This document shows positions 18,419-22,646 of a stretch of DNA of 64,000 nucleotides, piece after piece. The translations under genes and the position numbers were made by a program. The notes beneath the pieces were generated by a model. It was given only the letters and a program-made list of their open reading frames with translations. It did no database searches and was not told where the DNA came from. This DNA comes from Candidatus Multivoradales bacterium. GTDB taxonomy: Bacteria; Acidobacteriota; Thermoanaerobaculia; Multivoradales; JAHEKO01. Position 1 is the stretch's first letter. Each line of letters begins with the position of its first letter. The stretch spans positions 2,304,001 to 2,368,000 of the forward strand of contig CBDFIJ010000004.1 of NCBI GenBank assembly GCA_965248055.1, written 5' to 3'.

Positions 18419-18540
18419 GATCACCAAGCGAAGCCGTTGGGCTCGCCCCTGGGCACACTTGCCCAATCAGCAGATTACGACGCCTTGGCAAAGTGCAAGA
18501 TCGATTGCATGATCTTGTTTAACGTTGCAAAAGTTCGACT

Positions 18541-18561
18541 CGTGTTCTGGTCAGAGCACAC
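18541..18561. repeat. att-like site copy 2 for the serine recombinase
   Basis: CGTGTTCTGGTCAGAGCACAC is identical to 21204-21224. It is an imperfect palindrome around a central GT. Confidence 0.85.
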
Positions 18562-18713
18562 TTGCACAAGACGCAAATCATGACGTCTTGACGACATGAA
18601 GGCAGCTCTGTTGAGCTGTCTTGCTCGTCTACGTGTCTTGGTGCCCAAAGAACCACACACCAGGATTCGAACTGCATACTGGGTTCCATTACCAGTTAGT
18701 TAACGTAACGAGT

Positions 18714-18875
18714 ATGGAACCCTACGAATATGAATACCGGGAGCACCTACGGGCATGCTACCCGGATCTTCCAGACGATGAGATTGAAGAGGTGGTTGAT
18801 CGCCTCGATCGGTATCTCAGAGTCATGATGCAAATAGCACAACGGGAACGCGACCAGAACTCTGGCGGGGGATAA
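18714..18875 (+). CDS. small protein, paralog of the recombinase-associated ORF at 22661-22843
   Basis: YPDLPDDEIEEVVDRLDRYLRVMMQIAQR versus YPDATERQLEKAERRLESYLRVMSNIARR. Confidence 0.65.
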   Translation: MEPYEYEYREHLRACYPDLPDDEIEEVVDRLDRYLRVMMQIAQRERDQNSGGG

Positions 18876-19074
18876 TCACAAACCCGACAACCGGGAACAG
18901 ATGCGCGGCCATGTCAATTGAACGTTGTCGTTCAGAGGTCTACGATGAAGCTACAGAACTTTGTGGGGCGTTCCCAGATGCTACTTTTGAGCAACTTATA
19001 GGAAGCCTATTGGCGTTTCAGTGTCTACATGAAGTTCCTGGTCGACAGTCATCCTAGTGAAAGAATAGAGAATA

Positions 19075-20994
19075 ATGACAATCCAATGGACCAATGAACA
19101 ACAGCGTATCTTGCAACGAGACCGGAACGATGGTTGTGCTCGAATCCTTGCCGGACCAGGCACGGGTAAGAGTGCAACGATCGTTGAATGGATCGGTCGT
19201 ATCTTGCAGGAGCCAGATCCACCAAGAGTCAGGTTGCTGACCTTCACAAGAGCCGCGACCGGTGAACTTGCCGCTAAGGTAGCGCAGCACCAAGCGACAG
19301 AAGCACTCCAGCCGAGCACGATCCACTCGTTCGCGATCTCGATACTCTTGGCGAACCCGGGTGTGGGTGAACTTCCAACACCTCTGAGAATCGCTGACGG
19401 GTGGGAAGAGAGAAACTTGATATTCCCATCTCTGTCCCGAAGAGTCGGCACCACCGCGACTAGTATCAAACGCCTGTTTCAGGAGCTTGCCGCAAACTGG
19501 GAGTCTCTTGAGGAAGAAACGGAGGATGAGAGAGTTAATCGAGACGTACGCCTCAAGTTTCAAGGCGCGTGGCAGGAGCATCGTCGGATCTATGGATATA
19601 CCCTCCTGGCTGAGCTTCCATGGGCACTTCGTCGAGCATTGCTAAACCACACAGATCTGGAAGGCACTGACTTTGATGTTCTCGTCGTTGACGAATATCA
19701 AGACCTCAATGCATGCGACCTAGAAGTGATCAGATTGATTCGCTCTCGGGGCACATCGATCATCGGTGTTGGAGATGATGATCAATCGATCTACTCCTTT
19801 CGAAAGGCTGCCCCGGAGGGGATTCGGCGATTTCAAACAGACTACCCCGGCGCCGACGATTTGCCACTGTCGGTCACACATCGTTGTGGTTCAACGATTA
19901 TCGAATGGGCAGATCACGTTATTTCTCAGGATCCGGATCGACCAGCGGACAAAAGGCCCCCGCAACCAGCTCAAGGCTCTCCACAAGGAGAAGCCGCGCT
20001 CCTAGCGTTCGGTGGTCACGCAGCAGAACCCAAGGGAATTGCAAAGCTGGCGCATCATCTGACCCACGATGAGGGACTAGATGCTTCCGAGATTCTCGTG
20101 TTACTTAAGAGCGACCCGAATGGCCGGTTTAGTAGTCCGATACAGCATGAACTTGATGCTCTGAACGTGCCATGAACTGATCCTGGAGCAACGGACCGTT
20201 TGCTCGATGATCCGGAGAATCAGCGATTGCTCGCGCACTTCAAGCTGGCATGCAATCCCCATGACTCACTTGCCTGGGCATCGCTACTGCACTCGACGAC
20301 TGGCGTAGGATCGACGTTTATCGACACAGTCTATGAATCTGCGCGAGAGGCAGGTACCACCTTTGGCGAAGCACTCTTGGCGGCAAGAGAGTCTGGGTTC
20401 GCAGATTTCACGATCAGAGTACCGTCCGGAACCACTCGACCGGTGGACGAGACTCGGGGCTGGCTTACAGAACTGGATCTGCCACTCGAGATGCCCGAAG
20501 AAGGTTGGGGCCGCTGGATGGTGTCTGTAGTTGGAGAAACTGATCACCTGGATATTTCCGACGAATTAGAGGCTCTTTTGTGCTCGGTGGATGAGAACAT
20601 CCGCGAGTGCGATCTGGCTGGCTATCTAGGTCAGTTACGACCTCTCTCGAAGGATCAGGCACAAGCGAAGAGTGCTGGGGTCAGAATCATGACGATGGCC
20701 GCCTCGAAGGGTTTAACTGTAACGGCTGCAATCGTTACGGCTTGTGAGGAGGGGATCACTCCGAGCTACAGGCCGGGCGTGGACATCAACGAGGAACGAC
20801 GACTTCTTTATGTAGCGATGACTCGGGCCAAGAAGTACCTCTACTGCACTTGGGCCCAGCGGCGCACAGGCCCAACGGCACGATCTGGGGCTTCACGAGT
20901 CCAAAATCTGAGGAATCCATCCAGCTTCTTTGATGGTGGGCCGATTCAAAACCAGGATGGCTTGAAGTTCATTGCTAGGCGATGGTTATCGTAA
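19075..20994 (+). pseudogene. UvrD/Rep-family SF1 helicase interrupted by one in-frame TGA (20173-20175)
   Basis: AGPGTGKS, VVDEYQD, VGDDDQSIY, THRC in the first ORF; MTMAASKGL and EERRLLYVAMTRAK in the second. Both ORFs are in the same frame. Confidence 0.85.
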
Positions 20995-21137
20995 CGAAGT
21001 ACAGGTGATCTTAGTTCGTGGCACCGTCTAAACAACACTTGCCGGCTGGCAGACTCTGCTTCTTTAAGGAACGCAAGAGTTGGCCTTTGCAGCTGGAACT
21101 TGACCCTGAGCAATGTTCCACTTGCCTTAGCGGCAAA

Positions 21138-22646
21138 TCACGACGTCTTGCCCTTTGGCCAGATTGTCTGCAGGATATTGTTGAGAGCACGTTTTGTTCG
21201 AGCCGTGTTCTGGTCAGAGCACACAGACTGAAAATCATCCGGCTTTCGCATTTCCGAGAAGGGAAAGCGTAGCTCAACGGACACGTTTCCGTTCTCAGCG
21301 AGTCGGTTCGAACTCACCGTTTCGACGAGAACGCGCTTTTCCGTGTCAGTTGCCCGTCCAAAGCTCTGTTGAGCCGTTGCCGCCAGTTCGAGTGTTTTCG
21401 TAGCCAAGTCGTACAGCGCCTCAGGATTGGCCTGTAGCTTGTCTCGACGCTCGGTAGTAGCACGTGCTTCGGTGAGTAGTTCTTCCTTGGTCTCGCGGTA
21501 CTGCGTTTGATCGAGGTCACCGTCAAGATACGCGATGGTGAGTCGTTTGAGACGGCTTTCGATGAGACCGCTCTGGCGTTCAAGGTCGCTAGTGTCGTTC
21601 TTGGCTCTTGTTTCCGCCGTTTCTTTGCCTTCGTCGAGCTTTTGCTTGAGGTAGGCGATTTCCTTGTCGTTGAACGAGATGGAACCGAGGGTGTCGGAAA
21701 CGGTCTCGGTCACCACGTCCTCGCGAACGGTTCTTCCGGGGCATGCTTTCTGGTGACAGCGATAGTAGACGCGGCCTTTCTGCAGCTCGCCGACCAGGAA
21801 CCGCTCGCAGTGTACGCACCGGAAAAGCCTGCGATAGACGTGCTGGCGACGGCTTGTCTGCTTGATGGCCTTTCCATTCATGACTCGCTGGACGTCGTCA
21901 AAGAGGCTCTGCGAAATCAGTGGTTCATGCTTGCCTGGGTACGTGTCTCCGGTTGCGCGCACCTTGATCGTTCCGGCGTAGAACGGGTTGTGCAGAATTT
22001 CGGCTAGGTATGGTTTGTAGACGCGCTTGCCGCCACCGGTTCGGAGGCCCTTCTCGCACATGACCGCGCTCAACGCATCGAGGCTGTATTCACCGGTCGC
22101 GTACAGCTCAAATGCTTCTTTGATCAATGGCCCGGTAACAGGGTCAATTGCCTTTGGCTTTCCGGCTCCCACGTTCTGGTACCCGAGTGGCGCGTTAAAG
22201 GGAAACAGCCCTTGCTTGAGCCGTCCACGATGACCTTTCTTGGTTTCATCGCGCAGATTACGGATGTAGTCGGCAGCAACGACGGCTTGGATGTCGGCAG
22301 CCAGTCTGCCACCTCGGGTTGAGAGATCGAGACTCTCGTGGGCAAAGTGGATGGCGCCTTGATCCATGAACTCGTTGAGGTCTGCCCAATCGCGCAGGTT
22401 GCGGGCGCTGCGATCAATCTTGTGGATGACGAGAGCCTCGACTTCCTTGGCGCGCAGGCGCTTGAGTACCTCACGGAATACGGGACGACCACGCTTGGCT
22501 GCTGTCTCCTTTTCCTCGAACCACTCGACGATCTGCATGTTGTGTTTTTCGGCGTAGCGTTCGATGGCAGAGCGTTGCTCTATGAGCGACACCCCCTCAC
22601 CTTGCTTTGCCGTGGATACGCGGATGTATCCAAAACACCGTTTCAT
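21138..22646 (-). CDS. large serine recombinase
   Basis: YIRVST catalytic Ser, KIDRSARN, APLGY, HEPLIS recombinase domain, CVHC...YYRC zinc ribbon, coiled coil. Confidence 0.93.
   Translation of the reverse strand: MKRCFGYIRVSTAKQGEGVSLIEQRSAIERYAEKHNMQIVEWFEEKETAAKRGRPVFREVLKRLRAKEVEALVIHKIDRSARNLRDWADLNEFMDQGAIHFAHESLDLSTRGGRLAADIQAVVAADYIRNLRDETKKGHRGRLKQGLFPFNAPLGYQNVGAGKPKAIDPVTGPLIKEAFELYATGEYSLDALSAVMCEKGLRTGGGKRVYKPYLAEILHNPFYAGTIKVRATGDTYPGKHEPLISQSLFDDVQRVMNGKAIKQTSRRQHVYRRLFRCVHCERFLVGELQKGRVYYRCHQKACPGRTVREDVVTETVSDTLGSISFNDKEIAYLKQKLDEGKETAETRAKNDTSDLERQSGLIESRLKRLTIAYLDGDLDQTQYRETKEELLTEARATTERRDKLQANPEALYDLATKTLELAATAQQSFGRATDTEKRVLVETVSSNRLAENGNVSVELRFPFSEMRKPDDFQSVCSDQNTARTKRALNNILQTIWPKGKTS
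21204..21224. repeat. att-like site copy 1, inside the 3' end of the serine recombinase gene
   Basis: Identical 21-mer to 18541-18561; encodes VCSDQNT on the minus strand. Confidence 0.85.

Follow-up and report, generated by a model that had tools for sequence, protein, structure and literature searches.

A gene for a large serine recombinase (LSR) lies in a 64-kb stretch of DNA (the window) from the 3.4-Mb genome of Candidatus Multivoradales bacterium (G000). Its last codons contain a core that is repeated further downstream, where it is again followed by a homologous C-terminal tail. Recombinase-free cassettes are probably docked by this enzyme in the 3′ end of its own gene, each cassette carrying a replacement tail. 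The proposal is built on the anatomy of the two sites, the recurrence of this anatomy across the recombinase family, a fixed boundary of the repeated DNA, conservation of the core at the DNA level and a precise polymorphism in which none, one or three cassettes are found at the core. All coordinates are those of the whole window; signed positions (-n/+n) are counted from the C of an invariant Arg codon, at plus-strand coordinate 21200.

Two cores and two tails at the recombinase 3′ end

The 21-mer CGTGTTCTGGTCAGAGCACAC is present on the plus strand at 18541-18561 and 21204-21224, with a spacing of 2663 bp. These are the only two copies in the complete genome, and no further copy was found in the window when up to three mismatches were allowed (0 expected in 100 shuffles). 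When extended, the repeat is 29 nt long with 27 identical positions (18533-18561 and 21196-21224). Both 21-mer copies continue in frame into a homologous tail of 21 codons and a stop. A profile of the family C-terminus detected two tails only in the 64 kb (E 1.7e-18 and 2.3e-07; next match E 0.48). The tails differ at 12 of 21 residues, with length and pattern kept. The initial annotation of this DNA had reported the 21-mer as occurring twice, 2663 bp apart, with one copy inside the recombinase 3′ end and a homologous in-frame tail behind each copy. Both points were confirmed, the former by the uniqueness of the repeat in window and genome, the latter by translation and the C-terminus profile. 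Its suggestion that the 2663-bp segment bounded by the two sites is potentially excisable holds at the sequence level. The parts of the two sites are as follows.

21196-21224, minus strand: in-gene recombination core (29-nt repeat), coding for residues about 474-484; the crossover is likely to fall in 21217-21223
21138-21203, minus strand: tail 1, 21 codons and a stop, ARTKRALNNILQTIWPKGKTS, now joined to the LSR and, if the cassette model is right, delivered by the cassette (open reading frame; family pattern conserved)
18533-18561, minus strand: distal recombination core, the second copy (repeat search)
18475-18540, minus strand: tail 2, 21 codons and a stop, SRTFATLNKIMQSILHFAKAS, unattached (profile E 2.3e-07; equal in length to tail 1 and to the distal tail of the same-genus genome G001)
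21100-21137, minus strand: post-stop element behind tail 1, with the palindrome-like TTGCC..GGCAAGTG (aligned with two other window copies and the G001 copy)
18562-18600, minus strand: cassette-side flank of the distal site, resembling a tail end plus post-stop element (alignment; conserved in G001)
18446-18474, minus strand: post-stop element behind tail 2, followed by 8 nt that match the core start at 7 of 8 positions and then by unrelated DNA

The post-stop element (about 35 nt) is found behind tail 1 and tail 2, and the flank of the distal core on the cassette side consists of it too; the same holds in G001. It consists of the last tail codons, the stop and a palindrome-like motif (TTGC..N7..GCAAGTG), and was seen at 21100-21150, 18562-18600 and 18446-18490 of the window and at 10765-10805 of locus L094. 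The palindromic element is also located upstream of the operon of a small open reading frame (ORF) and the LSR gene in L029 (9448-9578 and 11620-11640) and L021 (6203-6220 and 8199-8216). This arrangement suggests that the two ends of the recombinase unit have a protein-binding site in common. The copy at 18446-18474 is possibly the terminal half-site of an array. A 19-nt similarity with a palindrome at 40968-40986 was considered as a further site; only about 10 nt are common with the cassette-side flank and it was treated as chance.

Downstream copies of the 3′ end in the recombinase family

The LSR family is very large and extends over many phyla, with 5433 proteins at E <= 0.001 among 8000 candidates scored. 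The loci compared comprise 80 taken from species genomes, 80 from metagenomes and 6 from relatives (166 in all, 164 with a complete 3′ end). Their LSRs come from many phyla and, in the homologous loci surveyed, are at most 50% identical to that of the window (at most 51% in metagenomes). The last 135 nt + 45 nt of each LSR gene was searched against its own locus by short-word BLAST. The initial annotation had suggested a survey of homologous recombinases for repeated 3′-end sites with variable cargo, and such sites were found: same-strand copies of the 3′ end are located downstream of the gene in 24 of the 164 loci, one to three per locus, with three extra copies in L030, L053, L074 and L076. 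At other positions, matches were seen upstream on the same strand in 5 loci, upstream on the opposite strand in 3 and downstream on the opposite strand in 0. The upstream matches are mostly of the palindromic post-stop element and not of the core. With a protein profile, 17 more divergent copies were detected downstream on the same strand (15 loci), and all other positions together gave 6 matches. When the three detection methods were pooled, 34 of 164 loci carried a copy, a few of these (e.g. L037, L047) being called by method alone, without individual inspection.

Cassettes common to different LSR lineages were looked for in these loci; besides the L049/L053 pair described below, only short stretches of 68-86% identity were found (L056/L071, L008/L025, L007/L008). 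In L076 (11451-19780) two tandem copies of a whole 5037-bp cassette unit are present, perfectly identical over 181 nt at core and tail, either through a recent duplication or as an assembly effect. The plasmid collection gave 1 match at E <= 1e-40 among 72,556 records and the phages gave 2 weak matches, with no named element among them.

Cassette polymorphism at the core

Three separate assemblies with backbones 99.8-99.9% identical differ in what is present at the core.

L055: no change (reference); its own in-gene tail is joined to the LSR
L049: 1386 bp inserted at the core relative to L055; the L055 tail is at the distal end
L053: three cassettes, together 5891 bp, inserted at the core relative to L055; the L055 tail is again distal

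The sole cassette of L049 corresponds to the most distal cassette of L053 (98-99.7% identity). The inserted blocks of 1.4-5.9 kb are clean, have no recombinase remnant and end exactly at the core. Such a nested series is as would be expected from sequential entry of cassettes beside the recombinase. Other near-identical locus pairs were collinear or too short to inform. The initial annotation had spoken of an integron-like capture of cassettes. Capture is borne out in relatives by this series and by the 24 loci with downstream copies, whereas the likeness to integrons is a functional analogy only, the enzyme being a serine recombinase.

Boundaries of the site and position of the crossover

For 41 pairs of in-gene and downstream copies (26 loci), identity is near 0.3 as far as -25, reaches 0.8-0.95 from -23 onward, stays at 0.85-0.98 to about +9 and is 0.5-0.8 across the tail. 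The left boundary of homology (-23) is constant within 1-2 nt over the 41 pairs. No fixed consensus was found left of -24 in 33 non-redundant cassette-side flanks; palindromes of the TTGCCA..TGGCAA type recur in these flanks and behind the tail stop codons. Within the core, 142 of 143 loci use CGA for the invariant Arg codon, and 138 of 143 have T just before it. CGA accounts for 1102 of the 7383 Arg codons (14.9%) in the same genes. Its near-fixation at this position thus indicates that the core is constrained at the DNA level as a site.

To the left, the crossover is limited by the homology boundary. In the L055/L049/L053 series, single-nucleotide differences at -9 and -6 segregate with the tail side, and the crossover would thus lie left of -9 and right of -23. 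The LSR genes of L155 and L158 (89.7% identical) are collinear to -17, beyond which L155 continues into a tail and L158 into an antisense tRNA-Ala gene. Taken together, these three observations would place the crossover at -23 to -17, a segment of 7 nt at the recombinase-proximal edge of the repeat (21217-21223 and 18554-18560). The central GT of the palindrome (-14/-13), which the initial annotation had likened to the central dinucleotide of serine-integrase sites, lies outside the segment to which the comparative junctions point. Crossover at the conserved TCGAAC was also considered and is ruled out by the segregation of -9 and -6 with the tail. The family matrix also contains a weak dyad, with GG at -24/-23 opposing CC at -18/-17 and CG at -42/-41 opposing CG at 0/+1; an axis close to -21/-20 would be in line with this dyad, to which little weight is given.

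The recombinase and its partner

21138-22646, minus strand: LSR, 502 amino acids, intact (ORF, Pfam domains, AlphaFold2 model)
22661-22843, minus strand: small ORF 1, a conserved partner gene directly upstream of the LSR gene (homologues in relatives)

The protein has the features of the LSR class, namely a resolvase-type catalytic domain with a nucleophile serine, a Recombinase domain and a zinc ribbon with an embedded coiled coil. Pfam matches were obtained to Resolvase (PF00239, residues 5-146, 2.6e-27), Recombinase (PF07508, 9.7e-14) and Zn_ribbon_recom (PF13408, 1e-05). Across 30 aligned homologues the catalytic R9-V10-S11 and Cys277, 280, 297 and 302 are invariant. R483, located in the tail, is invariant as well; the tail is part of the family. 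The best matches among solved structures cover the catalytic domain only (E 1.5e-08 or weaker) and, by such comparisons, the enzyme is only distantly related to characterised LSRs.

The AlphaFold2 model, generated with the 30-sequence alignment, has a mean pLDDT (predicted local distance difference test) of 83.5 and shows the usual LSR domains. Long coiled-coil helices at 327-444 lie between the zinc-ribbon strands, the linker at 471-479 has pLDDT <50, and a short helix is formed by 485-495. In this model the attachment core, in the last ~30 codons of the gene, would code for a flexible or disordered linker between the zinc-ribbon domain and the C-terminal helix, which may be why the DNA there tolerates constraint as a site. 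The exchangeable unit is predicted to be one helix. From the adjacency of gene and site and the family-wide link between them, the LSR is taken as the probable catalyst of cassette movement. Enzymes of the LSR class act on specific sites of ~40-50 bp with a 2-bp crossover; for the present one, the evidence for recombination is comparative and consists of the conserved core of ~32 bp and the precise insertion polymorphism.

A homologue of small ORF 1 is present just upstream of the LSR gene in 21 of 86 loci (E <= 0.01, two short queries). Complex prediction for small ORF 1 with LSR residues 318-470 lent weak support to an interaction, with a median score of 0.49, the best control reaching 0.00; contacts agreed at >=94% between runs and the partner pLDDT was >=65. 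In the calibration 58 of 80 solved complexes passed, as did 2 of 110 mismatched pairs, and scores of 0.60 or less were given by only 7 of the 80 solved complexes plus both passing mismatches. As a working hypothesis only, the product of small ORF 1 may be an accessory or directionality factor.

Link to tRNA genes

In 11 of the 166 loci, mostly from Patescibacteria, the LSR ORF runs into an antisense tRNA gene (L011, L014, L015, L016, L036, L040, L069, L077, L123, L154, L158), with Ala, Gln, Arg, Leu, Glu, His and Cys tRNAs represented, and the last codons are the complement of the tRNA. L040 is a complete element of 7.9 kb, flanked by a 21-nt repeat of the tRNA-Glu 3′ end, and the LSR gene at one end reads into the tRNA. 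In L158 the conserved start of the core coincides with the 3′ terminus of tRNA-Ala. From the L155/L158 junction and the flanking repeat of L040, the core behaves as a true attachment site. We infer that its ancestor was an attachment site at a tRNA 3′ end; on this view, the DNA past the core turned in most lineages into a genuine C-terminal helix, which all partners carry. At the window cores no tRNA was found with ARAGORN or Rfam; the sole tRNA of the window is a tRNA-Arg at 45251-45327.

The two-site layout in a second genome of the genus

In G001, which belongs to the same genus, the LSR is 81% identical to that of G000, and the block homologous between the two runs from the distal core to a gene for a coupling-protein-like ATPase of type IV secretion systems (T4CP; window 18533-26538). 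G001 also has a second core and tail downstream, at a spacing of 398 nt, with only the small ORF between them and no helicase. Its core differs from that of G000 (serine codon TCT to AGT; Asp to His), and the same change is present in both G001 copies. To the left of the distal tail, the two genomes have unrelated DNA. Their distal tails share 42 of 73 aligned nucleotides, yet both have exactly 21 codons and the family pattern. The two-site layout is thus old and has been maintained in the lineage.

A tail swap between the two genomes was considered, as the motif RTKRALNNIL is present in the in-gene tail of G000 and the distal tail of G001. At the nucleotide level the G000 tail has 53 identities with the G001 in-gene tail and 48 with the G001 distal tail, and no claim is made. 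A core-like stretch in the G001 T4CP gene is coding, has no counterpart in the window and was treated as chance. G001 holds five paralogues of the recombinase family (L090-L093, L095-L098) and G000 one full copy. No close relative other than G001 was found: a metagenome scan with the single protein yielded none, a scan with the alignment yielded at most 51% identity and the genome contigs at most 50%.

Cargo of the cassettes

Cassettes in relatives are 0.4-6.5 kb long and contain 1-8 ORFs in either orientation. Among 30 larger cassette ORFs scanned, 17 matched a Pfam family and 13 did not. The matches included OLD-type ATPase-TOPRIM (2), KAP NTPase, PHP + AAA_23, Ser/Thr kinases (2) and DNA methylase, and also APH-like, NYN, DUF4238, pentapeptide, glyoxalase, insertion sequence (IS) transposase (L074) and glycosyltransferase families. 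PADLOC gave the following matches; these names, like those of Pfam, are annotations of predicted function only.

L053 (c2): Old, 6e-22
L065 (c1): Old, 6e-17
L104: PifA, 5e-80
L056: Ppl, 1e-22
L030 (c2): PD-T4-6, 3e-50
L071: mad6, 6e-21

The cargo thus annotated appears unrelated from array to array and often or largely of defence-like families. No recombinase was found in the domain-scanned cassettes except the IS transposase of L074; the 4.5-kb interval of L098, with a tyrosine-integrase homologue, lies outside that scan.

The array of the window consists of one 2663-bp cassette, with two genes between the cores.

18714-18875, plus strand: small ORF 2, 53 codons, ATG at 18714, a paralogue of small ORF 1
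19075-20994, plus strand: UvrD/GajB-like helicase, probable pseudogene (Pfam UvrD-helicase 2.3e-34, UvrD_C 2.2e-21)

Small ORF 2 is 42% identical to small ORF 1 (tblastn, E 0.001), and the copy in the G001 cassette is 76% identical. The helicase matches PADLOC GajB at 7.6e-31 and 1.2e-12. A single in-frame TGA at 20173-20175 breaks its otherwise continuous 639 codons, both halves being in the same frame. This TGA is either a nonsense mutation or a site of read-through, and the base is identical in the contigs of four public runs. A Gabija system has intact GajA ATPase-TOPRIM and GajB genes; the cassette has the stop-broken GajB-like helicase only, and no cassette ORF besides the helicase gave a Pfam match. 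Predicted promoters and terminators in 18300-23000 were no more than in shuffles, and no common promoter was identified.

Genomic setting

A divergent module shared with G001 and many relatives is located on the other side of the LSR gene (22951-26548, plus strand; Pfam and block homology).

22951-23280, plus strand: HTH_36
23517-23951, plus strand: XRE-like
23948-24421, plus strand: orf157
24500-24958, plus strand: RadC
25280-26548, plus strand: T4CP

Homologues among the 166 loci number 41 for XRE, 46 for orf157 and 54 for T4CP. As the module recurs beside the LSR in the family, the platform is part of an integrative, probably mobilisable, element. Just past the T4CP-like gene, an 894-aa AAA_13/SMC-like ATPase is encoded at 26739-29423 (minus strand; PADLOC candidate PDC-S06, E 1e-205).

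The region forms part of a 40-kb island, at whose two ends the tRNA-Arg(acg) 3′ end is directly repeated over 58 nt without a mismatch (5127-5184 and 45241-45298). The island has its own tyrosine integrase (5325-6554, plus strand) adjoining the left repeat, and the tRNA-Arg gene at 45251-45327 is on the minus strand. Public contigs break exactly at the 58-nt repeats, and their length of 40116 nt is simply an effect of these repeats on the assembly graph. The segment 7580-16653 holds a second, divergent pheS/pheT pair, its pheS being 37% identical to the other copy of the genome; G001 has one pheS only. The segment also has two AlaX-like editing-domain ORFs (9714-10427 and 12430-13149) and a class-V aminotransferase, and the group could serve self-resistance to an inhibitor of aminoacyl-tRNA synthetases or tRNA-dependent biosynthesis. 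Also within the island, a 1770-aa RHS-repeat protein (35615-40927, minus strand) may be a polymorphic toxin. At 50233-50306 a 21-nt unit is present in three tandem copies (100%, 100% and 94% identical).

Proposed mechanism and alternative explanations

Small circles without a recombinase would be the incoming form of the cassettes. Each circle would bear a partner site in which the same core has non-coding DNA on its left and is followed by a tail copy, stop codon included. The LSR would recombine the circle into the 3′ end of its own gene. The incoming tail would re-complete the LSR gene, and the former tail, displaced downstream, would mark the far end of the cassette. Successive rounds would generate arrays such as those in the relatives. 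In the window, core x core recombination would excise the cassette in circular form, and the LSR gene would stay intact with tail 2 as its new end; such reversibility is an inferred part of the proposal. The directionality of the reaction may depend on the swappable tail helix and on the conserved small ORF that precedes the LSR. The half-cores behind the tail stops (18446-18460 and 21100-21120) may act as pseudo-sites that turn neighbouring genes into new cassettes.

Several observations weigh against this mechanism or against its present operation in the window. Among the loci with at least 3 kb downstream of the LSR gene, a copy was found in 23 of 114, about one fifth. The downstream copies of L098 and L063 hold more of the LSR than the tail and are relics of whole recombinase genes. 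The terminal copy of L032 retains 19 nt of the core, to -5, followed by unrelated DNA, which fits a crossover at -23 to -17 less neatly. Whether the zero/one/three series arose by insertion or by deletion cannot be told from its sequence. The proposal does not extend to movement of the LSR-bearing element itself outside the tRNA-targeting members; in the window no third core or tail was found with up to three mismatches or with the tail profile. The window cassette is old, as its distal end and small ORF are common to G001 at 76-82% nucleotide identity and its helicase has a nonsense codon. This copy may no longer move and is possibly fixed; its present mobility is less likely than the mechanism. 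Contigs of the four public runs (one sample of one study) span 18300-22700 unbroken, with the cassette intact, no differences and no joints, and no excised or circular form was seen among them. Assembled contigs lose rare forms, and these contigs are thus uninformative on excision either way.

The alternative that survives best, although we consider it improbable, is that the second core and tail are the relic of two or more complete LSR elements, head to tail at one site, from which later deletions left orphan tails, with no capture or exchange today. It would account for the L098 and L063 copies, which match the C-terminal profile from its first position, and for the tyrosine integrase between the copies of L098. 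The age of the window cassette, its broken helicase and its copy of the small ORF that normally precedes the LSR would also be in line with it. However, small ORF 2 is on the strand opposite to that expected of a decayed tandem copy. Random deletions would scatter the left boundary, and this boundary is nearly the same in all 41 pairs. The blocks of the L055/L049/L053 series have no remnant of a recombinase and end exactly at the core, and the distal tails of G000 and G001 have kept an exact 21-codon frame at their low nucleotide identity.

A little less probable still is the possibility that the tail-bearing cassettes are independent elements at a hot spot, originally a tRNA 3′ end, and that the LSR is merely the latest arrival with a borrowed end. 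In the 11 loci where the LSR ORF runs into an antisense tRNA the LSR end is indeed host-encoded. L040 has the classical flanking repeat of an integrated element, and L032 stops in a half-core followed by unrelated DNA, as the array of the window may do at 18446-18460. Against this stands the zero/one/three series, in which the LSR backbone is present throughout and the cassettes adjoin the LSR; the cassettes thus changed after the LSR had arrived. In addition, the domain-scanned cassettes, save for the L074 IS transposase (and with the L098 interval outside the scan), have no recombinase of their own, and every tail fits the family protein pattern, which argues that the tails are element DNA and not host DNA.

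A one-way or reversible switch that alters the C-terminal helix and activity of the LSR, or silences cassette genes, instead of collecting genes would fit the differing tails of equal length and pattern, the position of the site in a flexible linker just before a separate helix and the G001 cassette with its small ORF alone, but it is very unlikely, since a switch has no need of arrays of up to three cassettes with unrelated cargo.

Docking of cassettes in the LSR gene thus appears the likely explanation among those considered. A wider picture, for which we regard the case as evenly balanced, is that of a serine-recombinase platform for gene capture, widespread in many phyla, whose own reading frame is the docking site. 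Its cassettes would bring a spare C-terminal 'exon', and the platform would have arisen from tRNA-targeting elements with an integrase that read into the antisense tRNA and would now stockpile single-gene anti-phage systems.

Should the docking mechanism be correct, integron-style gene collection would have arisen independently with a serine recombinase and would need only a short duplex site and a self-repairing recombinase gene. It would explain variable regions beside recombinase genes in Acidobacteriota, Verrucomicrobiota, Bacteroidota, Alphaproteobacteria, Patescibacteria and others. Extra copies of the last ~100 nt of the recombinase gene would then provide a rule for cassette boundaries in the mining of defence genes. 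Natural pairs of LSR and site that bring many circles to one landing pad would be of interest for genome engineering. With its CGA codon in all but one of 143 loci, the core would illustrate how service as a recombination site can hold the DNA sequence of a coding segment constant.

Comparison with known systems

In the literature searched, which did not extend to supplementary tables that may list such attachment sites, no description of cassettes docking in the 3′ end of an LSR's own gene was found. SCC/Ccr arrays and integrons come nearest, but no known system among those compared appears to unite a serine recombinase, a docking site in the frame of this enzyme and a replacement C-terminus on each cassette.

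Attachment sites inside an integrase gene are present in the archaeal integrases of the SSV1 type. For the streptococcal IME_Spy2096_SNF2, PMC5357655 describes a recombination site within the integrase coding sequence. In these systems the gene end meets host DNA or the gene is split, whereas here each partner supplies a tail, the gene stays whole and LSR-less cassettes use the site.

Integrons have a docking site served by a resident recombinase, newcomers push older cassettes outward, and the cassettes, which lack a recombinase, serve as accessory or defence stores. Their recombinase, IntI, belongs to the tyrosine class, attC sites are recognised in folded, single-stranded form, and the cassettes are mostly promoterless single genes read from Pc. 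The likeness lies in a resident recombinase with the docking site beside or within its gene, in entry next to the recombinase and in recombinase-less cassettes. In contrast to IntI, the enzyme here is a serine recombinase. The site is a fixed duplex-type core of ~32 bp plus a coding tail with no flank consensus, and multi-gene cassettes are found in either orientation.

Tandem accretion at tRNA genes, including tycheposon arrays, involves successive integration at one site with newcomers displacing older elements, and non-autonomous elements, among them cis-mobilisable elements (CIMEs), are flanked by attachment-site repeats (bioRxiv 10.1101/2020.12.28.424599; PMC5704250). One shared site and non-autonomous elements are common to these systems and the present one, and a tRNA 3′ end serves as the site in 11 of 166 family members. 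They differ in that no tRNA is present at the site in the window or in most members, and the repeated unit here codes for the C-terminal helix of a recombinase.

Staphylococcal cassette chromosome (SCC) elements integrate, through their Ccr recombinases, at the 3′ end of rlmH (orfX). The account of SCC arrays given in PMC11470126 is of tandem cassettes moved by LSRs, with recombinase-less ones mobilised in trans and many of them carrying anti-phage defences. An LSR, tandem stacking at the 3′ end of one gene, bounding direct repeats and recombinase-less cassettes are likewise found here. The docking gene, however, is the recombinase's own and not rlmH, the cassettes carry a coding replacement of the C-terminus, and the hosts are environmental bacteria of many phyla. 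The mechanistic kin of the arrays described here would be tandem SCC/pseudo-SCC or CIME-type arrays.

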